This document shows positions 3,223 to 61,374 of a stretch of DNA of 64,000 nt, piece after piece. The notes below the pieces were generated by a model. That model was given only the letters and a program-made list of their open reading frames with translations. It was not told the DNA's origin and ran no database searches. The stretch comes from Candidatus Omnitrophota bacterium (GTDB lineage Bacteria; Omnitrophota; Gorgyraeia; JAHIPI01), in contig JADHVZ010000007.1 in the NCBI GenBank assembly GCA_016783745.1, positions 259 to 64,258 on the forward strand. Reading direction: 5' to 3'. Every line of letters starts with the position of its first letter. Position 1 is the first letter of the stretch. The translations under genes were made by a program, and so were the position numbers.

Positions 3223-3319
3223 GGACAATGGACTTCCCCCAATAAAATGGATAGTTAATTAAACATTCTTTGTTTTTCAAATTCCTCAGGGCTTAAGTAC
3301 CCTAAGGACGAGTGAAGTC

Positions 3320-5048: not shown

Positions 5049-5360
5049 CTCTCCGAAGCTGAACGCGTAAGCAATTCAGCGAAGGAGGACGGGCGCGGAT
5101 TTGAATTCTTCCGGTATCAGGCCGCTTAATGAGCCGTGCGGCCTGAATGTATTATATTCCTTTCTCCAGTCTTCAATTGAGGTTTACTACATATTTTTTT
5201 AAGGATTGCTCATGATATTAGTGTTAATAATTATACCTGCTAATTATCAATTAATCAAGTTTAATGAAGTCGCTGATTTCTATTGAACAAAAAGTCCTTA
5301 AGTGGTAAAGTATTTATACTCATAAAATGTAAAAATCCACAAACAAGAAAGGAGTTTGTT

Positions 5361-6101
5361 GTGAAAAAAAGATATGTTATCATATCGATCGTCCTGGCTG
5401 TGAGCCTTTATTGCCTTATGCCTTCCCATGCCACCATCAATACGGAGTTACAGCCCTATATAGACTCTGTGGATCAGGTGCAGAAAGGCATGACTCTGTG
5501 GCAGCTGATCAAAACCGGCGGTTTTATAATGGTCGTACTGGGAGGCATGTCGATAGCCGCTATAGCGAGTATAATATTCAACTTTATGACATTGCAGAAA
5601 ACTAAACTTGCGCCGGATGATTTTACCGAGGATATCATGCAAAAGCTTTCCGGGAAAAAGCATAAAATAGCCGAAGAATTATGCAGATCACAAAACAATA
5701 TCATATCAAAGATCGTTCTTGCGGGCTTGAGCAAAAAGATAAAGGGCGCCGTGGTGGCGCGCGAGGCCGCTGAAACCTGCGCCAGGAAAGAAGTCGCCAA
5801 TCTCTGGCAAAACATCAGCTATCTCTCGGATATAGCGATGGTCTCCCCTATGATCGGACTGCTGGGGACAGTGCTCGGCATGATACAGGCATTCAACGTT
5901 ATCGCGTTTCAGACGGCCGTAGTCAAGCCCATGCTGCTGGCGGGCGGCGTATCCAAGGCTATGGTTACAACAGCCGGAGGCCTCATAGTCGCGATACCCG
6001 CTATGATCTTTTACTCCTATTTCAGAGGCAAGGTCCAGGAAATATCAAATGTGGTGGAGAGCCATTCTTCTGATATTCTAAAAATGATGGAAGAGGTGTG
6101 A
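5361..6101 (+). CDS. exbB: MotA/TolQ/ExbB-family proton channel
   Basis: C-terminal three-TM core MVSPMIGLLGTVLGMIQAF...AGGLIVAIPAMIFYSYF is typical of ExbB/TolQ. Likely start is GTG at 5361, 6 nt after GGAG, followed by a signal-like N-terminus. The ORF track starts earlier at 5283. Confidence 0.8.
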   Translation: MKKRYVIISIVLAVSLYCLMPSHATINTELQPYIDSVDQVQKGMTLWQLIKTGGFIMVVLGGMSIAAIASIIFNFMTLQKTKLAPDDFTEDIMQKLSGKKHKIAEELCRSQNNIISKIVLAGLSKKIKGAVVAREAAETCARKEVANLWQNISYLSDIAMVSPMIGLLGTVLGMIQAFNVIAFQTAVVKPMLLAGGVSKAMVTTAGGLIVAIPAMIFYSYFRGKVQEISNVVESHSSDILKMMEEV

Positions 6102-6102
6102 T

Positions 6103-6525
6103 ATGGCCGTTAATCTTAATATATCGGATTATCAAAAGCAGAAGCCCGCTGTCCAGATAGCCCCTCTTATAGATGTTGTATTCCTGACTTTGATATTCTT
6201 TATGGTGCTTTCGATATTCAATCAGCTGGAATCGGAAATAAGCATAAGTGTCCCTAAAGCGAAAGAATCGAAAGAGACCGTAAGGAGCCCGGGCGAAGTC
6301 ATCATAAACATCAAGAAAGACGGGACTGTCATCATCAATCAAAAAACTCTCTCGTTCGAGGGCTTAGACGAAATGCTTAAGAGGGTATCGACGCTTTTTC
6401 CTGACCAGCCGGTCATAATTCGCGCCGATGAAGAAACTTACCATAAATATGTGGTGAAAGTGCTTGATGCCTGCGCGAGAGCCAACATCTGGAACGTCTC
6501 TTTTGCGACGCTTAAAGAAGAATAG
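6103..6525 (+). CDS. exbD: ExbD/TolR biopolymer transport protein
   Basis: 140 aa with a single TM carrying APLIDVVFLTLIFFMV (conserved Asp) and a periplasmic domain. Translationally coupled to exbB. Confidence 0.8.
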   Translation: MAVNLNISDYQKQKPAVQIAPLIDVVFLTLIFFMVLSIFNQLESEISISVPKAKESKETVRSPGEVIINIKKDGTVIINQKTLSFEGLDEMLKRVSTLFPDQPVIIRADEETYHKYVVKVLDACARANIWNVSFATLKEE

Positions 6526-6537
6526 CGGTTACGGGAT

Positions 6538-8904
6538 ATGATTAAAGGAAAATTATTCGTAATAGTTCTGATTCTAATAGGCAGTATTCGGTTTTGTCTT
6601 GCCCAGTATGCCGCGCCCGAGACAGCTGCCCTTGAGCAGTTTGATTTCGCGACGGGGTTGTTCGAGCGCGGCATGTATAAAATGGCGGGCGATGAATATA
6701 AAAAGTTCATCGACGCCTTTGCCCAAAGCGAACATTTAAAAGACGCTTATTTCGGATTTGCTGAAAGTCTATATTTTCAGAAAAGCTATGATGAAGCATT
6801 GTACGAATACAACAAATACCTGGAACGTTTCTCTACGGCGGATAACCAGATGCTTGTCGTAAAGCTCAGGATCGGCGAGGTGTTTTTCTTTACAGAAAGG
6901 TTCGATGACGCCATAGCGCAGCTTGAATCACTTGAAAGGGAGGATTTCAGAAAAGACCAGATGCAAACTCTGTATTATTATCTGGCAAAGGCGTATAGAA
7001 GGAAAGGTGACGATGAAAAAGCCAGGCCTTATTTTAACAAAGCTGCGGAAATTATCGGCGATAACGAATACGCCTTTAATTCTCTCATCGAGCTCGGAGA
7101 TCTATATGCGGGAATGTCGGAATACGATAAAGCGTTAGAACAATACAGTAACGCCCACGAAAAATCAGACTCAGAAAAAACTAAAAGCTTTTCGCTTTAC
7201 AAGATAGCGGAGACGCAGTTCCTTGCCGGAGACTACCCTGCGTCCATAAACAGCTTTAAGCGGGTGTTATCGGACTATCCTGAAAATGAAATATACTCCG
7301 AGGCACTGAGCAACCTGCTTCTTTCGTTATTTAACACGGAAAAATACGAAGAGCTGATAAAGGAGTATGCCGACCGGCGGCATCTTATCAAAAATGAGGA
7401 TAAATTTTTCAATGTTCATTTTACCGCGTATTCCGCGTATACGGAGATCGGGGATCATGAAAAAGCGCTGTCCGGGCTCGATGGCCTTCTCTCATCCGGA
7501 TGGGTCAGTCAGAAAAATAAAGACAGGGCCGCTTTAAAGAAAAGTGAGATCTTTTTGTCGGCAAAACGCTTCGATGAGGCTATTAAGGAAATCGACGCTC
7601 ACCTCTCAAGTGAAGATGATTATGCCGATAATATCATATTCATCAAGGGAGAGGCGCTTTATGGCGCGGGTGATTTTGAGGGAGCTGCAGCGCAGTTCAA
7701 TAAACTCATAGATGAACACCCCGGCTCCCCATTTGCCATAGATGCCATCTATAGCCTGGCATATGTCCAGAAAAATATGGAACAAAACAAGAGCGCCAGA
7801 GACTCCTTTATGAAATATTACGAAAGATCCAAAGATGGGACAAAGAGCCAGGCGGCGTTGTACAACGCGATCTTGCTTGACTTAAAAGATGAAGAGCTTG
7901 GAAAAGCTGTCAAGGACTGTAAGCTGTATCTATCTACATTCGAGCATGGTAAATACAGAGAAAAGATATTATTCACTCTCGGCTCGGTCTATTCACAGAT
8001 AAAAGATTACGGTAACGCTATCCATATGTATAAAGAGTTCATAGAGGTGTATAAAGGCGGCCCCAAATTGCAGGACGCCTATTTTCGAATTGCTTACGGC
8101 CTTCAGATGTCCGATAAATATGATGAAGCGGTAGAGCATTACGATAAGCTGGAAAAGGATATGAATATAGGTGGGCTTTATTACGCCGCTTTAAAAAACA
8201 AAGTACTGATATATTTTGCTAAAGAAAATAAAAGTAAAGCCGCGGAGGTCTATGATCATATTATAAGCGACTTCCCCGGAAATGACTTAGGCATAGAAGG
8301 GCATTTCTGGCTCGCTAAATACTATTTAGAATGCAGTCGCTTTAAGGATGCTATACGCATATTAGAAAAAACCGGGGCCAGGCCTGACGCCAAAGGCAAC
8401 GAAAAGCAAATAGCGTATTTTAAAGCAGAGGCCTATAAAGAGACAGAAGATTTCAGTAAAGCAATAGAAAATTACGACATAGTCTTCTCTTACGGCGATC
8501 AAGGCGATGTCTATTCAGGCGCTTCACGCATAGGCAAAGGGTTGTGCCTTATAGAGACCGGAGAATATGATAAGGCCAAAGAAGAATTTGATAAAGCAAT
8601 ACTTGAAAATCCGGATGACGATACGATCGTTATGCGGGCTAAATTCGAGATAGCCGGCATTGAACAACTTAAAGGGAATATGGAACAAGCGTATAAGCTT
8701 TATATGATGGTCGCCATACTCTATGATAATGATGAATACAGCCCCAGGTCGCTTTTGAAAGCAGCCGACATATTTCAGGATCTTAAAAAGTTCGCAGAAG
8801 CCAAAAAGGCATACCGGGAGATCATAGACAAATACGGAGAGACCGAGTTCGCCCGCGACGCAAGAAATAGACTACAAGGCATAAGATGGAAATTAAACGA
8901 TTAG
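6538..8904 (+). CDS. Secreted tetratricopeptide-repeat (TPR) protein, 788 aa
   Basis: Signal peptide followed by about 15 TPR-like repeats (AxxYxLA...P patterns throughout). Confidence 0.75.
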   Translation: MIKGKLFVIVLILIGSIRFCLAQYAAPETAALEQFDFATGLFERGMYKMAGDEYKKFIDAFAQSEHLKDAYFGFAESLYFQKSYDEALYEYNKYLERFSTADNQMLVVKLRIGEVFFFTERFDDAIAQLESLEREDFRKDQMQTLYYYLAKAYRRKGDDEKARPYFNKAAEIIGDNEYAFNSLIELGDLYAGMSEYDKALEQYSNAHEKSDSEKTKSFSLYKIAETQFLAGDYPASINSFKRVLSDYPENEIYSEALSNLLLSLFNTEKYEELIKEYADRRHLIKNEDKFFNVHFTAYSAYTEIGDHEKALSGLDGLLSSGWVSQKNKDRAALKKSEIFLSAKRFDEAIKEIDAHLSSEDDYADNIIFIKGEALYGAGDFEGAAAQFNKLIDEHPGSPFAIDAIYSLAYVQKNMEQNKSARDSFMKYYERSKDGTKSQAALYNAILLDLKDEELGKAVKDCKLYLSTFEHGKYREKILFTLGSVYSQIKDYGNAIHMYKEFIEVYKGGPKLQDAYFRIAYGLQMSDKYDEAVEHYDKLEKDMNIGGLYYAALKNKVLIYFAKENKSKAAEVYDHIISDFPGNDLGIEGHFWLAKYYLECSRFKDAIRILEKTGARPDAKGNEKQIAYFKAEAYKETEDFSKAIENYDIVFSYGDQGDVYSGASRIGKGLCLIETGEYDKAKEEFDKAILENPDDDTIVMRAKFEIAGIEQLKGNMEQAYKLYMMVAILYDNDEYSPRSLLKAADIFQDLKKFAEAKKAYREIIDKYGETEFARDARNRLQGIRWKLND

Positions 8905-10583
8905 CTTCAGATATATTTAATCGCCTCGGAAACGGCATAAAAGAAAATACCGTGATATTCGCGGCCGTTGTCTCAATTATTCTTCATATGGTGTTTTTTG
9001 TTTACTCGTCTATTGTGGTGCTGCCCGGTATCCGGAGTGAAATAGAAAGATCGAAAGCTATATTCAATATAAAAACTGTGGAGAAAAAACCTGTTGTCAA
9101 AAGAAAAAAGCCGCCTCAAAGCACAAAAACAACATATTTGCAAAAAATTAAATTTGAAAGTCCTGCCCTGCCCACCGGAGCATCATTGAGCGCCGCAGAT
9201 GAAAAAATCGAAAAAGACGGTTTCAGCAAAGAGGCGCAAAAAATCAGCAAGCCTGTATCCATAGAGCAGCTGAAGGATCTGGGGGACCTTGAAAAGGAAA
9301 AAAGGCGTGAACATCTGGCAAAAAAAGGCCAGCGTAAGACAAAAAAAGATATCGTTGAGGTAGATAGGGGCATATTAGACACCGCGGCGGGGCCTGAGGA
9401 CCTGCTTGAAGCCGACTTTTCTGAAGAATTTTTTGAGGAAATGCCCGGTTTCACCCCGAAGTCTGTCGGCGGGATCATGCAGGACCTAAAACGCGGCATA
9501 CTTTCCAGGTTTGGCATCAGCGAGACTTCACCGATCAGGAGAAAAGGCGCATTCTCCGGATTGGAAGAATATCTGGTGTATAATCTTGCCGCATACAGCG
9601 ACCCTGAAAACGGTAAGAAATATTACAAGATCACCATCCATGCGGGAAAGGATGTCGGCCGGCTGAAGCGGATGCCTAAAGAAATCGTATTCTTAATAGA
9701 TTGCTCTCTCAGTATACAAAAAGAACGGCTGGAAGAGTTTAAGGAAGGGCTGCTTTACGCCTTAAAAAATCTAAACCCCGATGACGTATTTAACATAATG
9801 GCATTTAAAGAGACCGTATCATGGTTCAGGGGTGATCCTGTAAAGCCGGATCCGGAGATCATTAAAGAAGCTATGGCTTTTGTCGAAGCCCTAAGCGCCG
9901 GTGAAGGCACTGATGCCTATAAAGCCCTTCTGGAAGCCATACAAAAGGAGGCCTCCATCACCCCCTCATACATCGTGATTTTCAGCGACGGGCGCCCTAC
10001 GTACGGTATAACGGATTCAAGAAAAATCATAAACAAGATCTCCATGACGAATAAAGGCGAAAGGCCCATCTTCGTTTTGAGCGGCGGGTTAAGAGTAAAC
10101 AGGTATTTTCTTGACTTTATTTCATATAAAAACAGGGGCTGGGCAGAATACGCTCAGCGTTCACATCAGGTTGCGGGACACATATCGAAGATGTATGAAA
10201 AAATAAAAGATCCCGTATTCCTGAACCTGAGATACAGGGTAAACGGTTTAAACGTAGACGAGATCTTCCCCAAGACACTACCCGATTTCTACCGGCACGC
10301 TGAATTTAATATTTACGGTGCCTATGAAGATGAGGATGAGTTTTCGCTTCAGTTGTTAGGGGACATAGAAAACGAAGTGAATGAGTTTATCGTAGTGGAC
10401 TCACTTAAAGGCGCCGCTCTAGGCGGGGAAAACATAGCCAGGGAGTGGGCGTTTAATAAGATATATCACCTGATAGGAATACTGGAACACGACAGCAATA
10501 ACAAGGAGATCATCGAAGAAATAAATACCCTTTGCGATAAATTCGGTATAAAAACCCCTTATTCTGACGAGATCAAAAAATAA
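8886..10583 (+). CDS. Membrane-anchored von Willebrand factor A (VWA) domain protein
   Basis: N-terminal TM, a Lys/Pro-rich linker (KKPVVKRKKPPQ), then a VWA domain with MIDAS DxSxS (IVFLIDCSLSI ... IVIFSDGRPTYG). Its start overlaps the TPR gene by 19 nt. Confidence 0.75.
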   Translation: MEIKRLASDIFNRLGNGIKENTVIFAAVVSIILHMVFFVYSSIVVLPGIRSEIERSKAIFNIKTVEKKPVVKRKKPPQSTKTTYLQKIKFESPALPTGASLSAADEKIEKDGFSKEAQKISKPVSIEQLKDLGDLEKEKRREHLAKKGQRKTKKDIVEVDRGILDTAAGPEDLLEADFSEEFFEEMPGFTPKSVGGIMQDLKRGILSRFGISETSPIRRKGAFSGLEEYLVYNLAAYSDPENGKKYYKITIHAGKDVGRLKRMPKEIVFLIDCSLSIQKERLEEFKEGLLYALKNLNPDDVFNIMAFKETVSWFRGDPVKPDPEIIKEAMAFVEALSAGEGTDAYKALLEAIQKEASITPSYIVIFSDGRPTYGITDSRKIINKISMTNKGERPIFVLSGGLRVNRYFLDFISYKNRGWAEYAQRSHQVAGHISKMYEKIKDPVFLNLRYRVNGLNVDEIFPKTLPDFYRHAEFNIYGAYEDEDEFSLQLLGDIENEVNEFIVVDSLKGAALGGENIAREWAFNKIYHLIGILEHDSNNKEIIEEINTLCDKFGIKTPYSDEIKK

Positions 10584-10636
10584 AAAATCCCGGGCATATC
10601 CTGCCGGGGATCTGATTCATGTATATAAAAACCTTA

Positions 10637-11092
10637 CTATACTTGCGCCATCTTCATCTGCTCTCTATTGCCTACAAATTCGAGTACCCTGCTTAAGTCT
10701 TCCTGTTCCGCAGCTCCGAATCTGAGGCCCGAGTCAGTGCCGCGCTTCCATACGATATTGCCCTGCATAAAAACAGATTGACGGTTGAACGGTAATTCGA
10801 CTTCGAGTGAGACAATGGTATTTATATCTATACTATTAAGGAAAAGCCGCACCCCGCCCCTGCTAATATCCTTTATCCATGATATGCCCTCCTCAGCTGG
10901 TGTCTTATATTTTGTTCTTAGCAGGGCCTGATAACGCGGGAATATTCTTTTCTCCTTTATAAAAAACTTTTTTTTCCTACTAAACAAACTGCTTGGACTC
11001 GGGAGGCTTTCTCTGTACCTCGATACCATCAAGGCTATTGCCAGAGAGAGTAATGTTAAACTCCCTATTAGCAAATGCATTTCAACGTCCAC
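10637..11092 (-). CDS. PilZ-domain (c-di-GMP-binding) protein with N-terminal TM segment
   Basis: RxxxR-like segment (FPRYQALLRTKY) and the D-x-S-x-x-G motif (DISRGGV) characteristic of PilZ. Confidence 0.6.
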   Translation of the reverse strand: MDVEMHLLIGSLTLLSLAIALMVSRYRESLPSPSSLFSRKKKFFIKEKRIFPRYQALLRTKYKTPAEEGISWIKDISRGGVRLFLNSIDINTIVSLEVELPFNRQSVFMQGNIVWKRGTDSGLRFGAAEQEDLSRVLEFVGNREQMKMAQV

Positions 11093-50864: not shown

Positions 50865-50880
50865 ATTGTATAGGAGAATT

Positions 50881-51597
50881 ATGATAACTAAAGAAAGAGA
50901 GAAAGCGTTCGGGCAGTCTATTAAATCATGGCCGATAAGTGAACGTCCGCGCGAATTACTTCTGGACAATGGACCTGATTGTGTTTCTGATGCCGGGTTA
51001 ATTGCAATATTGTTGCGATCCGGCACGAAAGGCAAAGATGCTGTGTCACTTGCCAGAGACTTGATTAAGCATTTTGGCAGCTTGAGAGGGTTGTTATCTG
51101 CCAGGAAGGCAGATTTAGAAAAGATAAAGGGACTAGGCCAGGCAAAGATTGCGCAACTTATGGCAGTGATAGAAATTGCCAAACGCCAACTTAAAGAGGA
51201 AATTATCGGTAAGCCCTACATTGAGAACGAAAAAGATGTCATGGATTATTTATCTCTGACTATGCGCGATTTAAAAGAAGAGTTTTTCAAAGTGTCGTAC
51301 CTAAATAAAGCAAATATCATCATCTCAGTAGAAGATTTAGCCAAAGGGACTATAGATCAATCCTCTGTCTATCCGCGAGAAATCATAAAGAGGGCCCTGG
51401 AAATAGGGTCTTGCGCTATTGTTTGCGTCCATAATCACCCGTCAGGAAACTTAGAGCCCAGCAAATTTGATATAGAGGTTACTAAGAGGCTCACTTCTGC
51501 CTGTCAGGCTGTTGATATTACCCCTTTAGATCATATAATAGTATCTCCCCCGCGGTCAGTTAAGCTTAAAAAGCAGGGGTGTATTTTCAAATATTGA
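50881..51597 (+). CDS. radC: RadC-like JAB/MPN domain protein
   Basis: N-terminal HhH region and C-terminal JAMM motif HNHPSG. Start is taken at ATG 50881, preceded by GGAG. Confidence 0.8.
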   Translation: MITKEREKAFGQSIKSWPISERPRELLLDNGPDCVSDAGLIAILLRSGTKGKDAVSLARDLIKHFGSLRGLLSARKADLEKIKGLGQAKIAQLMAVIEIAKRQLKEEIIGKPYIENEKDVMDYLSLTMRDLKEEFFKVSYLNKANIIISVEDLAKGTIDQSSVYPREIIKRALEIGSCAIVCVHNHPSGNLEPSKFDIEVTKRLTSACQAVDITPLDHIIVSPPRSVKLKKQGCIFKY

Positions 51598-51663
51598 AAA
51601 TACGTGATATTATAGTTTAACTTCAGTAAAAATGTAGATAAACTATAAAATATCAAATTTTAC

Positions 51664-51692
51664 TTGACAACAATGATTTTTTATTGTATACT
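51664..51692 (+). promoter_or_regulatory. sigma70 promoter TTGACA-N17-TATACT for the hsdM operon
   Basis: TTGACA at 51664-51669, 17-nt spacer and TATACT at 51687-51692. A GGAG RBS lies at 51733, before the ATG at 51744. Confidence 0.5.
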
Positions 51693-51743
51693 TCTGTATC
51701 GGCAGCAGGAATAGTAATTCATACAATACACAGGAGAACAATC

Positions 51744-53231
51744 ATGGAAAGAGTAAATTTAGAAACCTTAAAATCTCACCTTTGGAAATCTGCTGATATT
51801 CTGAGAGGGCATATTGACGCGGCAGATTACAAAAACTATATTTTTGGACTTTTATTCTTAAAACGCATTTCCGACTGTTTTGATGAAGAAGTGGAAAATA
51901 TAATAAAGGAAACAGGCGCTGAGAGACGAGCACATGAAGATAGGGATTATCATGATTTCTTTGTGGATAAAAAAGCATATTGGAAGCACCTTAAATCACG
52001 CACACATGATATAGGCACGGCAATCAATACCGCAAATGATAAACTTGAAGAAGACAATCCGGAAACGTTAGAAGGAGTTTTAACTACAATTGACTTCAAT
52101 GATAAGGAGCGCCTGCCGGATAATATTCTTTCTCAGCTTATTGCCCATTTTTCCAGCATAAGATTAGGAAACAAAGATTTAGAAAAGCCGGATATTTTGG
52201 GCGACGCGTACGAATATTTAATAGCGCAATTTGCCTCAAGCGCCGGAAAAAAAGGAGGGGAATTTTATACACCTAAGGAAGTGGTTGAATTATTAGTGGA
52301 AATTTTAGACCCGCAAGAACGTATGAGAATATGCGATCCTGCCTGCGGCTCCGGTGGCATGCTGGTTCAATCTGTATATCATTTAAGAGAGAACAAGCAA
52401 AATCCTAAAAACATATCCCTTTACGGGCAAGAGATAAACGTAGGCACATGGGCAATTTGTAAAATGAATTTACTTCTGCATGGCCTGCGCAATGCGCAGA
52501 TAAAAAGATGCGATACACTAAGAGATCCTCATCCGCTCGTTAAAGGAAAGCTGATGCAGTTTGATATAGTGATTGCAAATCCACCTTTTTCCCTTAAAAA
52601 CTGGGGATATGAAAAGGCTCAGAATGATTCTTATGGAAGGTTTAGATTTGGTATACCTCCAAAAGGATATGGCGATTATGCCTTTGTCCAACATATGATA
52701 GCCGCCATTAAGCCCACGGGTAAAATTGGAGTTGTTTTGCCTCACGGCGCATTATTTCGCGGAGGCACAGAAGGAAAGATAAGAAAAGGCATAATAGAAG
52801 AGGATCTTATTGAGGCAGTAATAGGTTTACCTTCTAAGTTGTTTTATGGCGCCGGTATCCCGGCGTGCCTATTAATAATTAACAGAAATAAGCCAAAAAA
52901 CAGAGCTGGCAAGATATTTTTTGTCTATGGCGCAAATGATTACTTAGAAGGTAAAAAACAGAATAAACTGCGCAGGGAAGATGTTGAAAAAATAGTTTCA
53001 GCATTCAGGGGGCATAAGGAAATAGAAAAATACTCCAGGGCTGTTTCTCTTACTGAAATCCAGGAAAACGATTATAACCTTAACATCACAAGATACATTG
53101 ATGTTACCGAAGAAGAGGAAAAGATAGACATTCAAAAGACAATTGACGATTTAAAAGAGGCCAAAAAAGAATATAGGCGGTTTGAAGGCAAAGTTTTGGA
53201 TTTTTTAAAAGAATTAAACTACAAGGTATAA
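51744..53231 (+). CDS. hsdM: Type I restriction-modification system DNA methyltransferase subunit
   Basis: N6-adenine MTase motifs: FYTP (motif I region), DPACGSGGML (SAM binding) and VIANPPF (NPPF catalytic). The HsdM N-terminal domain is present. Confidence 0.9.
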   Translation: MERVNLETLKSHLWKSADILRGHIDAADYKNYIFGLLFLKRISDCFDEEVENIIKETGAERRAHEDRDYHDFFVDKKAYWKHLKSRTHDIGTAINTANDKLEEDNPETLEGVLTTIDFNDKERLPDNILSQLIAHFSSIRLGNKDLEKPDILGDAYEYLIAQFASSAGKKGGEFYTPKEVVELLVEILDPQERMRICDPACGSGGMLVQSVYHLRENKQNPKNISLYGQEINVGTWAICKMNLLLHGLRNAQIKRCDTLRDPHPLVKGKLMQFDIVIANPPFSLKNWGYEKAQNDSYGRFRFGIPPKGYGDYAFVQHMIAAIKPTGKIGVVLPHGALFRGGTEGKIRKGIIEEDLIEAVIGLPSKLFYGAGIPACLLIINRNKPKNRAGKIFFVYGANDYLEGKKQNKLRREDVEKIVSAFRGHKEIEKYSRAVSLTEIQENDYNLNITRYIDVTEEEEKIDIQKTIDDLKEAKKEYRRFEGKVLDFLKELNYKV

Positions 53232-53234
53232 AAT

Positions 53235-53834
53235 ATGTTTGAAGGCAAAGAAAAAATAGAAAAAGTTTTTATGGCGCTTTCGGAACAGCTTGATGCTGAA
53301 GGCGTTATTCATCTTGAGATGGTTGTTTGCGGAGGCATAGCGTTGAATATGCTGGGATATATTAAGCGGACGACCAGGGATGTGGATGTTATTGCGTTTG
53401 TAGATAAAAACAAAGATGGCCTGACCGTTTTATCTAAGGCAATCCCTATGAAACCCGAGCTTATAAAGGCAGCAGAAAAAGTTAAAAGAGATTTTAATTT
53501 GCCTGATAACTGGCTTAATGCAGGGCCGGCATCAGTTATGGATTTTGGCCTACCGGACGGGCTTATGGACAGGGCTGAAACCCGTTCATACGGCAAAAAC
53601 CTCATTATTCATTTTTTATCAAGATACGACCAGATTCATTTTAAACTTCATGCGGCAGTTGACCAGGCAGGAGGCAAGCACTACGACGACCTTATGGAAC
53701 TGAAGCCGTCTGCTGAAGAGCTGGAAAAGGCCGCGCGCTGGAGCATCACCCATGATTCGTCACCGGGCTATAGACAGGTTTTGAAGGATTTCCTTAAACA
53801 GATGGGGCATGAAGATGTCGCGGGAAAGCTTTAA
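53235..53834 (+). CDS. Minimal nucleotidyltransferase-fold protein (AbiEii/DUF1814-like NTase signature), function unknown
   Basis: VVCGGIALNMLGYIKRTTRDVDVIAF fits the hG[GS]x(9-15)Dh[DE]h pol-beta NTase motif. Starts 4 nt after the hsdM stop. Confidence 0.45.
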   Translation: MFEGKEKIEKVFMALSEQLDAEGVIHLEMVVCGGIALNMLGYIKRTTRDVDVIAFVDKNKDGLTVLSKAIPMKPELIKAAEKVKRDFNLPDNWLNAGPASVMDFGLPDGLMDRAETRSYGKNLIIHFLSRYDQIHFKLHAAVDQAGGKHYDDLMELKPSAEELEKAARWSITHDSSPGYRQVLKDFLKQMGHEDVAGKL

Positions 53835-54861
53835 AAATTATTATCTGGATAACGTACTGGATTTTTTGTGGCGTCAATGGTCTGCATTAGGTGTCGCCGG
53901 CAGCGCCAGGCAGGAAGACAGCTGGGCAATTGACCCTGAGGCATTGATAGTTTTTTCTTTAGAATTCGCACGCTATGAACCACGTCTTTTCGATGAAATA
54001 CTCGATTGGTTGGTAACGAATGGGAAGTGGATTGACATCCAAAGGTTAAGAAGCATTTTAAAAACCAAGGGCGAAAAAATTCAGCGTTTGGCAAGTTCCG
54101 CAGCCGCGTTTATATCTTTACTTCCTGGTTCATATCAACGTAAATGGCGGGCGCTAAGCTTATTTAGAAAGGCCGATTCTAAAACTCAAATTGAGCCGCT
54201 TTTTTTTACTAAGACAGGAGAGCCTTATCTGAAATCGCGGACGAAATCGCAGGTTTTTACAGATTACGGTTTTTTGCGGGAATCTTTTGCCTTGCGGAGA
54301 ATGACAAAAACTACCTCTATATCCAGCAGCAGCAATATACGGTTTTTGTTAAGAGCGCTCTTTGGCATTGGCTCAAGGTCAGAATGTATACTCTACCTTT
54401 TAACCCATGAAGCGGGACACCCTTCTGAAATAGCAAAGGGAATCGGGATTTCTGTCAGGGGGACGCAAGATGCCTTAATTGAACTTGCAGAGTCAAGCCT
54501 GATTCTCACGCGTATCAAGGGAAAACGAAAGATCGAATACTGGCTTTCGCAGAAAAAATGGTGGGAATTCTTAAAGAATCAGCCTTTGAGTGATACAAAA
54601 CCGTCTCTTTGGGTTAACTGGATCGCAGTATTTAACGCGCTTTCAGGAGTTTGGAACGTATTAAAGGAAATAGAAGCGCCGGAGACTTCTGACTACATGA
54701 AAAGTTCCAAATTACACGAGGCAATGGAGGTCTTTATCGCAGGGGAATTTGAAAAAAGCGGCCTTGACATCCCACCTGCTCCGGGAAAAGATATAACCAT
54801 AGAAGAATATGCTAAAGCGTTTGAGGAATTTATCAAGAGAATTCTCGGGACCAATAAGTAA
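53809..54861 (+). CDS. Hypothetical protein with internal winged-helix DNA-binding region, function unknown
   Basis: 350 aa. ECILYLLTHEAGHPSEIAKGIGISVRGTQDALIELAESSLI...KGKRKIEY is wHTH-like. Overlaps the preceding ORF by 26 nt and ends 3 nt before hsdS. Confidence 0.4.
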   Translation: MKMSRESFKNYYLDNVLDFLWRQWSALGVAGSARQEDSWAIDPEALIVFSLEFARYEPRLFDEILDWLVTNGKWIDIQRLRSILKTKGEKIQRLASSAAAFISLLPGSYQRKWRALSLFRKADSKTQIEPLFFTKTGEPYLKSRTKSQVFTDYGFLRESFALRRMTKTTSISSSSNIRFLLRALFGIGSRSECILYLLTHEAGHPSEIAKGIGISVRGTQDALIELAESSLILTRIKGKRKIEYWLSQKKWWEFLKNQPLSDTKPSLWVNWIAVFNALSGVWNVLKEIEAPETSDYMKSSKLHEAMEVFIAGEFEKSGLDIPPAPGKDITIEEYAKAFEEFIKRILGTNK

Positions 54862-54863
54862 CC

Positions 54864-56072
54864 ATGGCGCAAATACAAAACCTAAAAACCGAAAACAAAT
54901 TCAAAAAGACCGAAATTGGCGATATTCCGGTTGATTGGGAAATAGCCGAGCTTGGTAAAATCACACAAATTGTAATGGGGCAATCTCCGCCATCATCGAC
55001 CTACTTTGATTATGAAAATGGAATACCATTTTTTCAGGGCAAGGCAGAGTTTGGAGTAAAATATCCAAAGATAACTAAGTGGTGTAATGAACCACGCAAA
55101 CTTGCAGAGAAGGACGATACTTTAATTAGTGTAAGAGCTCCAGTAGGTGATGTAAATATTGCGCCTGAGAAATGCTGTATTGGGAGAGGCCTTGCAGCCA
55201 TTAGAGGTGTTAGCGCTTATAATAATTTCATATATTTTGTGATGTTTTCAGCAAGAGATATTTTAGCAAAGATAGGGCAGGGCAGCACCTTCGAGGCAAT
55301 AAACAAGGATGTTCTATTCAAGTTAAAAGTAACCGTTCCCCCTATTCGCGAACAACAAAAAATCGCCAAAATCCTATCAACTGTCGATGATGCCATTGAC
55401 AAGAGCGGTAAAGTCACTGAAAAAACAAAACAGCTCAAAAGAGGCCTGATGCAGGAGCTCTTGTCCCATGGCATCGGGCATAAGAAATTTAAAAAGACAA
55501 AAATTGGCGAGATTCCCTCGCACTGGAAAGTAGCGAAGATTGAAAATTGTTGTGACATTCTTGACTCTCAACGCATTCCTTTAAATGACGTTACTAGGCG
55601 TGATATGAAAGGACCCTTTCCTTATTACGGTGCAAATGGGCTTTTAGATAGCGTAAACAAGTATATTTTTGATGATGACTTAATCTTGATGGCGGAAGAT
55701 GGAGGGTATTTTGATGAATATAAAACCAGACCTATTGCATATCTTGTAAACGGTAAATGCTGGGTGAATAATCATGCTCATGTTTTACGAGCAAAAAAAG
55801 AATACTGTCGCGAATGGATATATTATAGCATTGTCCATAAAAATATATTGCAGTACATTGGGGGTGGCACACGCGCGAAACTCAACCAAAAAGAATTAAG
55901 AGCTATCCCGATATTAGCGCCCCCATTATTCGAACAAAAACAAATTGCCGAGATTTTATCCTCAGTTGATGATAGAATAGAGAAAGAAAATGTGAATAAG
56001 GAATGGCTGGAAAAACTCAAAAAAGGTTTGATGCAAGTACTGCTAACAGGAAAAGTGAGAGTAAAGATATAA
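54864..56072 (+). CDS. hsdS: Type I restriction-modification system specificity subunit
   Basis: Two target-recognition domains separated and followed by the conserved coiled-coil repeats (...LKRGLMQELLSHG... and ...LKKGLMQVLLTGK...). Confidence 0.85.
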   Translation: MAQIQNLKTENKFKKTEIGDIPVDWEIAELGKITQIVMGQSPPSSTYFDYENGIPFFQGKAEFGVKYPKITKWCNEPRKLAEKDDTLISVRAPVGDVNIAPEKCCIGRGLAAIRGVSAYNNFIYFVMFSARDILAKIGQGSTFEAINKDVLFKLKVTVPPIREQQKIAKILSTVDDAIDKSGKVTEKTKQLKRGLMQELLSHGIGHKKFKKTKIGEIPSHWKVAKIENCCDILDSQRIPLNDVTRRDMKGPFPYYGANGLLDSVNKYIFDDDLILMAEDGGYFDEYKTRPIAYLVNGKCWVNNHAHVLRAKKEYCREWIYYSIVHKNILQYIGGGTRAKLNQKELRAIPILAPPLFEQKQIAEILSSVDDRIEKENVNKEWLEKLKKGLMQVLLTGKVRVKI

Positions 56073-56074
56073 TT

Positions 56075-58555
56075 ATGCCAAAGCCAAAATTCAACGAAGA
56101 CACATTGTCAGAACAACCTCTCATAAAACAGCTCCATGAGCGGATGGGCTATGAATATATTCATGGAGACAATCTTGACCCTGATTTGCATGATGAATGT
56201 GAGCGCAAGTCACGTAGAGAAGTTATTCTGGTTGAGCGGTTGAAAAAGAAGCTCAAAGAGATTAACGATAATTTAACAGATGAATCAGTCGACAAGGCAA
56301 TACGCAAGATTACTCATATCCAGGCGGAGACCGCGCTTGAGGCAAATAAGATATTCCACAGCCGTTTGATTTCCGGGGTTTCAGTTGAGCAGGATGTGGG
56401 CGCGAGGCGGCAGAATGTAACAGTAAATTTTATAGACTTTAAGGATATTGGTAAAAATGAGTTTTTGGCTGTCAATCAATTTTGGGTAAGGGGCCCTAAA
56501 GAAACCTGCAGGCCGGATGTAGTTATTTTTATAAACGGTGTGCCCATAGTTGTCATTGAGTGTAAAAGCCCCGTAGCTAAAGACACAGGTGTTATTGACG
56601 CACAGCGCCAGTTAAGGCGCTATCAAAGAGATATTCCAGACCTATTCAGGACAAATGAAATTCTCATAGGCTGTAATCTTTTTGGCGCAAAATACGGGAC
56701 CATAGAAGCCCCTGAAGACAAATACCACGAATGGAAGGAGCAGGGTAAAGAGAAATTACCAAATATGGCCGAGCACCCTTCGGTGAAAGAGATGCTCAGA
56801 TTAGGACTGATTGACAAAAAAGACATAGGCAAACATCCTCCGATGCAGGAAATCCTCGCAGCGGCGGTACTCAATAAGAAAAATTTGTGCGATATAGTGC
56901 GGAATTTTATTGTTTTTGATTATGACAAAGAAAGCCATAAAGTAATTAAAAAGATTTGCCGTTATCAGCAGTTTACAGCTGTTAACAAAATTGTAAGGCG
57001 TGTTGTAGAAGAACCTGATAAGAAAGGAATTATTTGGCATTGGCAGGGTTCCGGCAAGTCGCTTATTATGGTCTTTGCCGCCATTAAATTAAGGCGGGAA
57101 GAAGAAAAGCTTAAGAACCCAATTATTCTGATTGTTACAGATAGGACTAAGCTGGATAGGCAAATAACAGAAAACTTCCAGAATTGTAATTTTCCAAATC
57201 CCCAGCGAGCCAAAAACATGAAGGAGTTGTACGCCTTACTTAAAAGTGGCACAGGCAACACTATTATGACTACTGTTCAGAAATTCAGGGCTGTTTTGGA
57301 TAAACCGTTATCACAAGAAGAGAATATTATTGTTATGACTGATGAAGCTCACAGGACTCAATACGGCGCCTTTGCCCTTAACTTACGAAAGGCATTGCCG
57401 AATGCGGGCTTTTTCGCGTTTACCGGCACGCCGCTCAATAAGCGGGACAGGAATACATACCGCCATTTCAGCCCGTCGCATGAACGTTATTTAGATAGAT
57501 ATGATATGCGCCAATCTAAGGAAGATGGGGCAACGGTCGATGTCAAGTACGAAGGCCGTATGGCTAATCTGCAGGTTGTTTGCGCCTCAATTGATAAACT
57601 TTTAAAAGAACTGTTTCCCGAAAAGACAAGCAGAGAAATTGCCGAGATTAAAAGGCGGTATGCCCGCATTGACACGATTTTAGAAGCGCCTCGTAGAATA
57701 GAACGGGTCGCTATGGATATCGTAACTCACTATAATGCTAAAATTGCGCCTAACGGTTTTAAGGCAATGATTGTTACTAACAGCCGGAAAGCTGCGGACA
57801 AATATAAGAAAACGCTTGATAAGCTAATAGATCCCTCCTGGTCAACGATTGTTATGACAGTAGATAATGATAGCCCGCAAGAATGGAAAGATAACTATAA
57901 GAGGACGCCCACAGAAGAAGAACACCTTACAGGCAAGGAAGTGTTTCAGAATCCGTCAAACCCTTTAAAATTTCTTATAGTCTGCGATAAACTATTGACG
58001 GGTTTTGACGCGCCTATTATGCAGGTTATATATCTTGACCAAAGGATGAAAGAACATGGACTTTTGCAGGCAATTGCAAGGACAAACAGGCCATACCCCA
58101 GAAAGAATTTCGGCTTAGTTGTAGATTATGCCGGGGTCGGGAAAGAATTAACACAGGCTCTGGCGATATTTGACAGAGAGGATCTTGACGGGCTTTTTAG
58201 CGTCGATGATATAAAGAAAGAATTAGCATCTATGAACGATGCCCACAGAAAGATAATGTGTATATTTAAGAAAATCAAACGCGAAAACAAGCCTAGTGAA
58301 GTAATTCAGCAGCGGGAGACTAAAAAGCTAATAATAAATCTGCTTTTTAAAAACATCAAAATCTCCCCCAAACGTCTTTTTTCTTTTAATTTCTTCGCCC
58401 CCTTCAATTTTTTCTTTTTTGAGGAAAAACAAAAATGTCAAGTCGTGAATTTACAAAGGGTTATGAAAAATCGCCCCCGAAGGTCTTTATCCGGACTTTC
58501 GGATAGGGGATGGGTGAGTAAATTTGGGTTATTTCTTCCAGGATATCGGGGATAG
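56075..58555 (+). CDS. hsdR: Type I restriction enzyme R subunit, apparently 3-prime truncated
   Basis: HsdR_N nuclease-like N-terminus, helicase motif I (WHWQGSGKS), motif II (TDEAH) and motif VI (QAIARTNR). Only about 110 plausible residues follow motif VI, whereas about 300 are typical. The ORF tail (FFAPFNFFFF...) is non-protein-like and overlaps the convergent trkH. Confidence 0.75.
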   Translation: MPKPKFNEDTLSEQPLIKQLHERMGYEYIHGDNLDPDLHDECERKSRREVILVERLKKKLKEINDNLTDESVDKAIRKITHIQAETALEANKIFHSRLISGVSVEQDVGARRQNVTVNFIDFKDIGKNEFLAVNQFWVRGPKETCRPDVVIFINGVPIVVIECKSPVAKDTGVIDAQRQLRRYQRDIPDLFRTNEILIGCNLFGAKYGTIEAPEDKYHEWKEQGKEKLPNMAEHPSVKEMLRLGLIDKKDIGKHPPMQEILAAAVLNKKNLCDIVRNFIVFDYDKESHKVIKKICRYQQFTAVNKIVRRVVEEPDKKGIIWHWQGSGKSLIMVFAAIKLRREEEKLKNPIILIVTDRTKLDRQITENFQNCNFPNPQRAKNMKELYALLKSGTGNTIMTTVQKFRAVLDKPLSQEENIIVMTDEAHRTQYGAFALNLRKALPNAGFFAFTGTPLNKRDRNTYRHFSPSHERYLDRYDMRQSKEDGATVDVKYEGRMANLQVVCASIDKLLKELFPEKTSREIAEIKRRYARIDTILEAPRRIERVAMDIVTHYNAKIAPNGFKAMIVTNSRKAADKYKKTLDKLIDPSWSTIVMTVDNDSPQEWKDNYKRTPTEEEHLTGKEVFQNPSNPLKFLIVCDKLLTGFDAPIMQVIYLDQRMKEHGLLQAIARTNRPYPRKNFGLVVDYAGVGKELTQALAIFDREDLDGLFSVDDIKKELASMNDAHRKIMCIFKKIKRENKPSEVIQQRETKKLIINLLFKNIKISPKRLFSFNFFAPFNFFFFEEKQKCQVVNLQRVMKNRPRRSLSGLSDRGWVSKFGLFLPGYRG

Positions 58556-60074
58556 GGCTATGAGGACTGTGTAGATCTCTAGTCGGCCCAGCAACATGCA
58601 GAAGACCAGGACCCACTTTCCGCCGATCGGGATCCAGGCGTAATTCTCTGTCGCGCCGATACCTGATAGGCCCGGGCCTATGTTACACATGGTCGCCGCG
58701 ACAGTAGTAAAAGAGGTGGTAAAATCTCCTATAAAAAAGCTCATGATCAGCGAACAAACAGTAAATAGCGCCAGGAAAAGCACGACAAAACCTACGATGC
58801 TGGCTACCTGCCTGTCTTCTATCGTTTTCTTCGCTATCTTGACCGGCGCTATGATCCTGGGCTGAATAATCGTCCTTATCTCCCTGAAAGCGCTTTTAAT
58901 AGTGACCATGACCCTTACCATCTTTATACCGCCGCCGGTCGAGCCGGCACATCCTCCGAAAAACATAAGGACGACCAGCATATAACGGATAAAATTAGGC
59001 CATATATCAAAATCCGCAGTGCAGTATCCCGTAGTAGTAGTGATCGACACTACCTGGAATGCCGCGTGGCGCAGCCTGCCGCCAAAAGAGTCTATTTTTG
59101 TTCCTTCAATATTTATTTTTTCAGTAATAGCCTCTTCGGTCAAGGGCCGGCTGCGATAGCTTCTGCTTATCTGTTCCCGAGAATTAATGCCGCTTGATTG
59201 AAGGACAAATGTACTCAGTAAAACCGCTATTAAGATAACAGCCAGGTAGAAATGGAGTTCTTTATTGCTTCTGAGGAGGGTGAATTTTCTTCCGAATAAG
59301 ATCCTGTAGTGAATGACAAAATTCATGCCGGCGAAAAACATAAATATAATGATCACCCACTCTATAAAGGCGCTGTTATAGGCCCCTATAGACGCGTTCT
59401 TTGTGGAAAATCCGCCGGTAGCCATGGTGCCGAATGAATGACATATCGCGTCAAAAAACGTCATTCCGCCTATTTTGAGAAGGGCTGTTTCGATCAAAGT
59501 CAGCACAACATAAGTCCCCCCACAGGATCTTCGCGGTCTGCGCAAGCCGGGGTTTAAGCCGTTCAGCGGCAGGCCCCGGGACTTCACCCCGAAACATCTG
59601 GTATCCGGCGATGCCAAAAACCGGTAATATAGCAAGGGCAAGGGTTATAATACCCATCCCGCCCAGCCAGTGCGTTAAGCTCCGCCAGAAAAGTATACCC
59701 TGCGGCAATCCCTCGATCTCGGTCATGATGGTGGCGCCGGTAGTGGTAAAACCGCTCATGATCTCGAAGTAGGCGTCAGTAAAGGCGTGTGTAAAAACAC
59801 TCAATGTGAGGCCTCCGGCCTGAGAAAGAAAATAGGCCGTAAGAGGTATGCAACCGAAAAGCGTTAACAAAAACCAGCCAAATGTCACTATGGCAAACCC
59901 TTCTCTTATGCCGGTTCCCGTCAACTCGTTTTTTCCGAAGAGTTTAAGGATGTTTCCGAATATAAATGAAGCTGCTATAGCGATAATAAAACCGAAAAGC
60001 CTGTGATCAAAAATAACTGCGGGAAAATTTCTTGAGGGGATCTCGAAGAACGCTATTAATGCCGGCACGATCAA
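58529..60074 (-). pseudogene. trkH: TrkH/KtrB-family K+ uptake protein, split by a frameshift
   Basis: ORF 59451..60074 encodes the N-terminal half up to ...[12 protein letters not shown] 58529..59641 resumes in another frame at [33 protein letters not shown]. The roughly 190-nt overlap contains the frameshift. Confidence 0.7.
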
Positions 60075-61374
60075 CAGATATGAAAGGATCTCCAGCAGTT
60101 TCCCTATCGAATAGGTATGGAATGATCACTTTATCTTCACGCACAATAGCGCCGACAATAATGGATTTCTTGAATGACGTATCAAGTTCCCGTAAAGATT
60201 TGCCGGTGACGAAACTGCGCCTGCCCGCTTTAAGGCGCAGGATCTCAATGGCGGCTGTCTTCAGTTTTAGGCATGTGCCGATAGGGGCTATCTGGATGTT
60301 TTCTATGATCATATTAGCCGTTATTTCCTGAGGATTGACTACGTGGTCTATCCCCAGAGAGTCAAAGAGCCCTATATAACGATCGTCATTTCTGAGGGCG
60401 ATGACCATATCGGCTCCCGTATTTTTTGCCATTAGACACGACATGATATTATCCTCCGAGTCTTTACCCGCGGCGATAAAGCAATCGGCATGCTCGATGT
60501 GCAGGTCCTGCAGGATCTCGCTGTTCGTACAATCACCATGGAAGACCTGGACGCCATCAAGTATCGTGGCCGCCATATTTCCGTGATCATGGTCCGGATC
60601 GATAAGTAATATCTGCTCACCTAAAGGTTTTAATGTCTTAGCAAGGTTGATGGCTATCAAAGATTCGCCCGATATCACGATCTTCTTCAGCTTGGCGGAT
60701 CTGCTGCCTATGAGTAGACGAAAATCCTTAAATGATTCTTTAGGCATAATAGCTACGATCTTATCTCCGGGTGAAAGCCTCTGGCTTCCTATAGGGGGCA
60801 GACTCTTCTCATCGCGTATGATCGCTACTATAAGTATGGGTGAGGGCGCGGACATCTGTTTTACTTCGGCAAGCGTTTTATTAGCAATAGGCATATTTTC
60901 GGTTACGCGATAATCACGAAGGTAGATATTTCCTGACTGAAAATTCGCCGTCTCGATAACACCCGGCAATTCAACATATTGAAGGATCTTCTTCGCCACT
61001 TCCCGTTCAGGCTCTATTACATTGGTAACGCCCAGCTTTTTGAGATCGACACAGAAGGCGGTAGTATACATATCGGATTTGAGCCTTGCGATGCGCTTTT
61101 CAACACCGTTCTGCATAGCAAAGTTACAAGCCAGCAGATTGGTCTCATCATCAGGAGTGACGGCAATAAGCATGTCCGCAGATTTTATTCCGGCAGCCTC
61201 AAGAATGGCGGGAGAACTGCCCTTGCCCATCACCACAAGGATATCAAGCTTTCTTTTTATCTGTTCACAAAGAGACTTATCCTGCTCGATGATAGAAATA
61301 TGGTATTGCAGGTTGTAGAAATATTCAGCCAGGCTGAATCCCACTGTCCCCGCGCCGACGATAATGATATCCAT
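60007..61374 (-). CDS. trkA: Trk system K+ uptake protein TrkA (two RCK/NAD-binding domains)
   Basis: [12 protein letters not shown] Rossmann start, a second GxGxxG-like half, and a length of about 455 aa. Confidence 0.85.

Follow-up and report, generated by a model that had tools for sequence, protein, structure and literature searches.

A nucleotidyltransferase gene and a large winged-helix partner gene embedded in Type I restriction operons: a candidate toxin-antitoxin cassette with its own putative operator

Some of the commonest phage-defence and stress modules are built on nucleotidyltransferase (NTase) toxins of the AbiE/MenT superfamily and, to our knowledge, the pairs studied so far are only regulator-first, with AbiEi-type or very small antitoxins. 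Pairs of an NTase and a winged helix-turn-helix (wHTH) regulator have been described before (PMC3985639), for instance COG2253-COG5340 and COG4849-COG4861. For AbiE and MenAT it is established that the NTase is toxic and that the pair regulates itself through inverted repeats in its promoter (PMC3985639, PMC7450476); the pairing of a small NTase (COG4849) with a larger wHTH protein (COG4861), regulator first, was predicted in 2014 (Dy et al.; PMC3985639) and is represented by MenT2/MenA2 (PMC3985639, PMC7450476). Being embedded in a Type I restriction-modification (R-M) operon has in turn been published as predictive of a defence role (bioRxiv 10.1101/2024.01.29.577857). Here we describe two genes, X and Y, that lie between hsdM and hsdS of a Type I R-M operon in a 64 000 nt stretch (the window) of contig JADHVZ010000007.1 from a Candidatus Omnitrophota bacterium. 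X encodes a predicted NTase and Y a wHTH protein, and the pair is a real, recurrent and uncharacterised module. By analogy with described systems we favour, with belief and doubt in about equal measure, the reading that X-Y is a self-regulated two-gene toxin-antitoxin or abortive-infection cassette of the AbiE/MenAT kind, with X as effector and Y as autoregulating neutraliser.

Two sets of loci were analysed. For the Y-selected sample, one genome per species was scanned with a Y profile, yielding 219 relatives; 80 loci were kept, 61 of them with enough flanking sequence. The X-selected sample comprised 80 metagenomic loci. Y-selected loci span Aminicenantes, Omnitrophota, Spirochaetales, Clostridia, Desulfobacterota, Nitrospirota, NC10, Elusimicrobiota, Verrucomicrobiota, Acidobacteriota and others, and the X-Y branch in the sampled records comes almost only from metagenome-assembled genomes. 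The order hsdM-X-Y-hsdS was present at 41 of the 61 loci, and at four more Y stood between hsdM and hsdS with either no gene or a different gene in the place of X; X-Y lay away from a complete hsd operon at 13 (at one of these beside an hsdM fragment) and Y was alone at three. The recurrence inside Type I R-M operons for which the original prediction had proposed a survey was thus borne out at 45 of 61 loci, and it was equally evident in the X-selected sample, where hsdM preceded X in 65 of 68 cases and hsdS followed Y in 41 of 46. Y came after X in 70 of 71 X-selected loci, the lone exception being a decayed X. The four-gene order extends across more than ten phyla, and the embedding occurs with two HsdM clades (66–79% and 42–43% identity to the window HsdM). 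Literature searches combining hsdM/hsdS with AbiE found no description of the hsdM-X-Y-hsdS arrangement.

X was upstream of Y at all loci examined, with an overlap of typically ~20–26 nt. Contigs of six further Y members, three of them fusions, were also checked: a gene of 137–205 amino acids lay upstream of Y in all six, overlapped it by ~25 nt in five and was annotated as DUF6036 in most, and most of the six lie outside R-M operons, beside housekeeping, mobile-element or defence-like genes. Free-standing X-Y copies adjoin an integrase, a DUF3987 gene, ParA/MobC genes and other defence-like genes, neighbourhoods that fit a mobile cassette; tblastn found no match for X or Y in 72 556 plasmids and none for Y in 50 697 phage records. 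Two findings had been named in advance as speaking against a defence module, namely that X and Y are ordinary Hsd-associated domains or that their homologues never co-occur with defence genes. Split HsdS or HsdM domains were rejected, as neither protein has any Hsd signal in Pfam and both occur without hsd genes in free-standing pairs, and X-Y homologues do co-occur with defence genes.

Several individual loci extend this picture of the pair and its insertion site. One Verrucomicrobiia contig (L073) carries two convergent, tail-to-tail X-Y cassettes (5061–6444 and 6996–8448), the second pair being only ~30–37% identical to the window proteins. A ParA/MobC contig with an X-Y pair (L166) also bears a separate Type I operon (7807–11026) in which a Fic-domain gene lies between hsdM and hsdS, another example of cargo at this junction. 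An Elusimicrobia operon (L053) has an extra 340-amino-acid open reading frame (ORF) without a Pfam match between hsdM and X, at 2349–3371.

Y was found without X at L003, L028, L052, L079 and L080 and an intact X was never found without Y in the sampled loci, which is what would be expected if X were the harmful partner. Over the same loci Y diverges faster than X, with identity falling from 62 to 35% for Y and from 69 to 44% for X. In some Elusimicrobiota operons Y is retained while the X slot is taken by a DUF3800 protein or an AAA_14/DUF4143 ATPase, and Y may partner with interchangeable upstream genes. Replacements of X were located at L051 9074–9859, L055 8936–9739, L058 1519–3039, L060 8468–9982 and L059 82–918; L059 is a short contig with no hsdM match, in which a DUF4143 protein precedes Y.

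X scored 24.9 bits against Pfam DUF6036 (PF19502), above the gathering cut-off of 23.6, and 21.5 bits against AbiEii (PF08843/DUF1814), just below the cut-off of 22.5; the PADLOC AbiEii model gave an E value of only 0.027. Among X homologues with precomputed annotation most carry PF19502 and a minority of the close ones PF08843. The description of X-Y as an unrecognised pair therefore stands for Y, which is unmatched, but not for X, which falls in DUF6036, nor for the combination of NTase and wHTH protein, which is of a known kind. PADLOC-DB v2.0.0 (2023) gave no significant match for either protein, a literature search found no paper on DUF6036, and sequence and profile searches of the PDB with X returned only a marginal match to a fungal NTase-like protein (5uvd).

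The AlphaFold model of X is confident (pLDDT 88.9) and has a pol-beta nucleotidyltransferase fold, and the closest solved folds include the toxins MenT1, MenT3 and MenT4. The NTase signature reported in the original prediction is present and invariant in homologues, as CGG (residues 32–34) and R45-x-T47-x-D49-V-D51, and is followed by F-K137-L-x-A-A and K-H149-Y-D-D152-L. AbiEii proteins are recognised by four NTase motifs (I, hG[GS]; II, DhD with a nearby Arg; III, KLxA; IV, +DxxD-like acidic; PMC3985639), and all four were found in X. In 21 relatives from distant cassettes, with identities down to ~30–40%, G33, G34, T47, D49, D51, R113, R130, D132 and K137 are identical throughout, as are D143, H149 and D152 in the 20 that are full length; the stretch T47-[R/K]48-D49 is likewise kept. 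Because the predicted catalytic residues are conserved across diverse relatives, we conclude that X is a predicted active NTase of the AbiEii/MenT-related superfamily. In MenAT toxins a conserved Ser/Thr phospho-acceptor lies two residues before the first catalytic Asp, and MenT1 requires T39 (the phospho-acceptor), D41, K137 and D152 (PMC11375011). T47 of X occupies the corresponding position, is invariant in 31 close and 21 diverse relatives, and together with its neighbouring motif residues appears to match these MenT1 positions, as equated by motif pattern and not by residue alignment.

Fold scores for X do not separate RNA-modifying from small-molecule NTases. X could be a small-molecule NTase of the aminoglycoside or lincosamide type and Y its transcriptional regulator, forming a resistance or metabolic cassette that sits in R-M operons by chance. 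We consider this very unlikely given the recurrent, fixed-order and translationally coupled placement between hsdM and hsdS, with two HsdM clades and in so many phyla, the conservation in X of MenT-type K137 and D152 together with a candidate phospho-acceptor Thr, and the lack of any match among the plasmids searched, where resistance cassettes concentrate.

Y has a winged helix and, as had been claimed, otherwise matches nothing described. Searches of Pfam, NCBIfam, PADLOC and PHROGs gave nothing significant and only weak generic wHTH signals, and sequence and profile searches of the PDB returned wHTH fragments only, with no significant match. The model (pLDDT 85.8, pTM 0.85) comprises an N-terminal helical domain (residues 8–117), a linker with short strands, the winged helix (174–245) and three long C-terminal helices. 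The family is large: a Y profile run against 1.84 billion cluster representatives (50% identity) retrieved at least 1728 members at E ≤ 1e-3, with 362 at E ≤ 1e-30, nearly all of ~340 amino acids. In JGI/IMG most X and Y homologues are labelled 'hypothetical protein', which is weak evidence against their assignment to COG4849/COG4861. Conservation in Y is concentrated in the N-terminal domain and linker, with a variable recognition helix and C-terminus; W21, G28, D42, R59 and W67 are invariant and W24, P43, E44, R55, F61, D62, R79, W113, F132, F150, G154 and R157 nearly so. Three fusions, P0252, P0254 and P0345 (loci L168, L081 and L164), carry C-terminal DUF5677, a Schlafen/AlbA_2 domain or an extension of ~1400 amino acids with a weak AAA_16 signal. 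The gene before the fusion is DUF6036-like, except at L164, where an unannotated gene of 204 amino acids takes that position.

These features of Y also bear on whether the roles might be reversed, as in MNT-HEPN (type VII) systems, with X protective, modifying and silencing an effector Y. The NTase-first order is that of MntA-HepT, the strongly conserved N-terminal domain of Y could be catalytic, and some Y proteins carry fused effector-like domains (AlbA_2, DUF5677). The partner in MNT-HEPN, however, has a HEPN domain with an Rx4-6H motif, and Y has neither a HEPN domain or fold nor this motif; we consider reversed roles very unlikely. Y as a HEPN toxin was rejected, both for want of motif and fold and because Y is found without X.

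Compared with AbiE (AbiEi-AbiEii; COG5340-COG2253/DUF1814; type IV/VII), X-Y is likewise made up of two genes, for a pol-beta-type NTase with motifs I–IV and a winged-helix DNA-binding partner; inverted repeats are present at its promoter, and its distribution is patchy, mobile and tied to defence contexts. The AbiE antitoxin binds inverted repeats in its own promoter; for X-Y a conserved palindrome co-occurs with Y and changes class with the recognition helix, the binding itself being putative. AbiE has the order antitoxin-toxin, whereas in X-Y, in accordance with the original prediction, the order is the opposite; X is ~100 amino acids shorter than AbiEii; and Y is larger than AbiEi, with its wHTH central and not N-terminal. 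None of 117 diverse Y members matches any AbiEi family in Pfam, weak generic wHTH signals being all that was seen, and Y lacks the combination of an N-terminal wHTH and an AbiEi_1/3/4 C-terminal domain that marks COG5340-type antitoxins. X-Y is not filed as AbiE because the antitoxin family and gene order do not agree and the PF08843 score is borderline.

The MenAT systems named as near kin are MenT1 (Rv0078A, COG4849) and MenA2-MenT2, in which the COG4861 protein (Rv0837c) is larger than the toxin and is encoded with Rv0836c. The antitoxin gene is first in all four Mycobacterium tuberculosis pairs, but the toxin-like gene is first in X-Y, and MenA1 is a protein of 68 amino acids without a wHTH, whereas Y has 350 and contains one.

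In the window hsdM, X, Y, hsdS and hsdR run head to tail on the + strand (Table 1), the Hsd identities being backed by Pfam, and they are packed as tightly as originally described: hsdM and X are separated by 3 nt, Y and hsdS by 2 nt and, with the hsdR start that is also gene-called in an independent assembly, hsdS and hsdR by 2 nt. X and Y overlap by 26 nt, or by 20 nt if Y starts at 53815; the latter start, an ATG, is more likely because an identical database protein and homologues begin MSQ or MSR. The sigma-70-type promoter claimed at 51664 was also confirmed (−35 TTGACA, 51664–51669; −10 TATACT, 51687–51692; spacer 17 nt), and no terminator-like site was found on the + strand from this promoter through the end of hsdR.

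An element new beyond the original prediction is a palindrome upstream of this promoter. The motif TATAGTTTA-N19-TAAACTATA is found upstream of hsdM in loci of many phyla; in the window its extended imperfect arms run from 51597 to 51625 and from 51633 to 51661, and 16 nt lie between the end of the 37-bp palindrome and the −35 box, a −35-like hexamer being found 14–17 nt downstream of the palindrome in most homologous loci. Allowing one mismatch or fewer per arm, there are 67 occurrences in 1.7 Mb of related loci compared with 0–2 in shuffles, and the spacer between the arms is exactly 19 nt in 63 of them. The palindrome lies within 250 nt upstream of hsdM in 59 of the 67 and directly upstream of X in four, in pairs without hsdM (e.g. 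L017/L088 and L160); among the remaining four, one precedes a lone Y (L052) by ~100 nt and another an hsdM by 326 nt. Distant cassettes have different palindromes right before the X start codon, for example GCTATTTAT...ATAAATAGC and TATAGTAC-N7-GTACTATA, and those located between hsdM and hsdS also carry their own palindrome, with their own spacer of 80–160 nt. In a Verrucomicrobiota/Acidobacteriota clade, where the cassette also lies between hsdM and hsdS, X has the cassette's own palindrome immediately in front of it and hsdM is not preceded by such an element.

As no genes other than X and Y are shared by all of these contexts and Y contains a DNA-binding domain, the 37-bp palindrome is probably the operator of Y. 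The start of the Y recognition helix tracks the palindrome class, being ISVRGTQD with TATAGTTTA, YFGRAVQN with TATAGTAC and YFERAVQG with GCTATTTAT, with exceptions at L051 and L052; in a sample that is small and confounded by phylogeny this covariation is suggestive only. In the window-type lineage the whole restriction operon would lie under the promoter and putative operator of the cassette. Just upstream of the 37-bp palindrome, and overlapping the stop codon of a RadC-like gene, there is a perfect 10-nt inverted repeat, GTATTTTCAA/TTGAAAATAC (51581–51603), which is on the + strand, was not picked up by the terminator scan and may serve either as the stem of a RadC terminator or as another site for a protein.

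Control of the operon is itself the basis of another explanation, in which Y is a Type I operon controller that times or limits hsdM, hsdS and hsdR expression after transfer and X is an accessory that, for example, nucleotidylates an Hsd subunit or Y, the pair not being a toxin-antitoxin system at all. The C proteins of Type II R-M systems are similar in being operon-encoded DNA-binding proteins with a palindrome by the operon promoter, through which mobile R-M systems regulate themselves. C proteins are Xre-type HTH proteins of ~80 amino acids, whereas Y is a multi-domain wHTH protein of 350, is paired with an NTase and is also found without R-M genes. A controller would be in keeping with a palindrome and promoter before hsdM that govern the whole operon, with the activator-like position of the palindrome upstream of −35, with the operons that retain Y without X (L003, L028) and with the mobility of the operon as a unit, the window HsdM being 66–79% identical to those of X-Y-bearing operons in many, unrelated phyla. 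X-Y cassettes with their own palindromes are, however, common outside R-M operons (the 13 Y-selected loci and most of the six further Y members), so the pair has a function independent of restriction, and the Verrucomicrobiota/Acidobacteriota cassettes have their palindrome before X and none before hsdM. We think that Y is unlikely to be mainly a controller.

The toxin-antitoxin or abortive-infection cassette is preferred because of the conserved active site, the overlapping and obligate pairing, the occurrence of Y without X, the faster divergence of Y, the palindromes, the patchy mobile distribution and the published behaviour of AbiE and MenAT. In such a cassette X would, by analogy with MenT, most likely extend an essential RNA by added nucleotides, for instance at tRNA 3' ends, and thereby stop translation. 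The winged helix of Y would bind the 37-bp palindrome by the promoter and control transcription, and Y would keep X inactive by direct binding or by inducing phosphorylation of Thr47, as MenA1 does with MenT1; antitoxin-induced auto-phosphorylation at this invariant residue is a possibility raised by the same comparison. With the cassette promoter and operator placed before hsdM, methylase, toxin, regulator, specificity subunit and nuclease would all be made from one Y-controlled transcript, and the likely outcome would be either a further layer of defence or the stabilisation of the restriction island by an addiction module. Palindrome binding by Y, toxicity of X, its target, neutralisation by Y, functional coupling to restriction and any link to phage infection are inferred.

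A number of points weigh against this interpretation. The support for it is wholly computational for either family. The NTase-then-regulator order is the opposite of that in AbiE, in the four M. tuberculosis MenAT pairs and in COG4861-COG4849. With a pI of 6.0 X is mildly acidic, which is not typical of toxins that bind RNA, and the finding of Y without X and not the converse rests partly on Y-selected sampling. For an antitoxin Y would be of unusual size, and the strong conservation of polar residues (D42, E44, R55, R59, D62, R79 and R157) suggests an intrinsic activity over simple sequestration; fusions of Y to DUF5677, to Schlafen/AlbA_2 or to a very long C-terminal extension also occur. 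In the window-type clade, moreover, the palindrome lies upstream of −35, at about −88 to −51 when counted from the likely start of transcription, which would suit activation as well as repression.

The presumed translation-targeting suicide effector inside an hsd operon recalls PrrC and RloC, anticodon nucleases found in Type I R-M loci; in the published model the nuclease serves as a back-up, triggered once restriction has been overcome (PMC2610378; embedding survey, bioRxiv 10.1101/2024.01.29.577857). A guard wired to restriction in this way can be imagined for X-Y, in which Y holds the hsd operator and silences X until a phage causes Y to be titrated or lost and X arrests translation, the trigger being that the phage disables DNA-binding defence proteins, for instance with DNA-mimic anti-restriction proteins, or shuts off host transcription. 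The parts would differ: PrrC and RloC combine an ABC-ATPase with a nuclease whereas X-Y combines an NTase with a wHTH protein, Pfam and PADLOC scans found no ABC-ATPase or anticodon-nuclease domain in X or Y, and PrrC consists of one gene, whose product the R-M enzyme itself keeps silent, while X-Y is also free-standing. We hold such a guard to be quite unlikely; if true, it would represent PrrC-like retaliation built from unrelated parts, and the N-terminal domain of Y would have a new sensing or enzymatic function.

Table 1. Coordinates and assignments of the operon, its promoter and neighbouring features in the window
Feature	Position	Strand	Description
RadC-like JAB-domain gene	50866–51597	+	Pfam RadC 3.4e-37; context, outside the X-Y module
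37-bp palindrome TATAGTTTA-N19-TAAACTATA	51611–51647	.	Candidate operator of Y
Sigma-70-type promoter TTGACA-N17-TATACT	51664–51692	+	11/12 consensus matches
hsdM	ORF opens 51684, likely ATG 51744 after AGGAG; to 53231	+	Type I methyltransferase subunit; Pfam N6_Mtase 5e-111, HsdM_N 8.5e-29
X	53235–53834	+	199 amino acids; DUF6036 nucleotidyltransferase, AbiEii/MenT-like superfamily; presumed toxin/effector
Y	53809–54861	+	350 amino acids (probably 348 from 53815); unmodelled family; presumed regulator/antitoxin
hsdS	54864–56072	+	Specificity subunit, two target-recognition domains; Pfam Methylase_S 1.6e-44, two stretches
hsdR	ORF 56003, start 56075; to 58555	+	Restriction subunit; Pfam HSDR_N, SWI2_SNF2, T1R_D3-like; 3' end truncated

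The G+C content of the operon is 0.33–0.43, against 0.44–0.52 in most flanking windows, and the RadC-hsdM-X-Y-hsdS-hsdR block (50866–58555) behaves as a horizontally transferred island. RadC is a frequent companion of the operon, lying upstream of hsdM in about a quarter of related loci, and the nearest database proteins are from Candidatus Omnitrophica metagenome-assembled genomes. The downstream edge of the island supplies a second observation beyond the original prediction, a truncation of hsdR. In tblastn with a 978-amino-acid HsdR only residues 1–709 align and homology ends at 58312, so that the window gene lacks the last ~270 residues of full-length HsdR and has in their place an unrelated, low-complexity tail of ~80 codons running into the trkH region. 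The same hsdR of 826 amino acids lies beside TrkH in an independent ENA assembly, and an assembly chimera was rejected since the junction there is identical. With those C-terminal residues missing, this organism may retain methylation and X-Y but have inactive or defective restriction; orthologous operons of the L002 or L004 type carry an hsdR of full length. Next to the junction the gene for the TrkH potassium transporter (58529–60074, − strand) consists of two overlapping ORFs of 370 and 207 amino acids, called as 325 and 205 in the other assembly, which suggests a frameshift or a genuine split at the island boundary; it is followed by an intact TrkA (60007–61374).

X-Y adds to the NTase pairs a large branch in which the gene order is inverted, the multi-domain partner belongs to a new family and the presumed operator fronts a complete Type I restriction operon spread over more than ten phyla. 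To a specialist the new partner family, the reversed order and the sharing, across phyla, of the putative operator by a Type I operon should be moderately surprising. If the proposed functions are true, the locus would offer a testable case of Type I transcriptional control by an embedded regulator and of a translation toxin that is coupled to restriction both physically and through regulation, for which the conserved 37-bp palindrome and the invariant residues provide ready targets for mutation.

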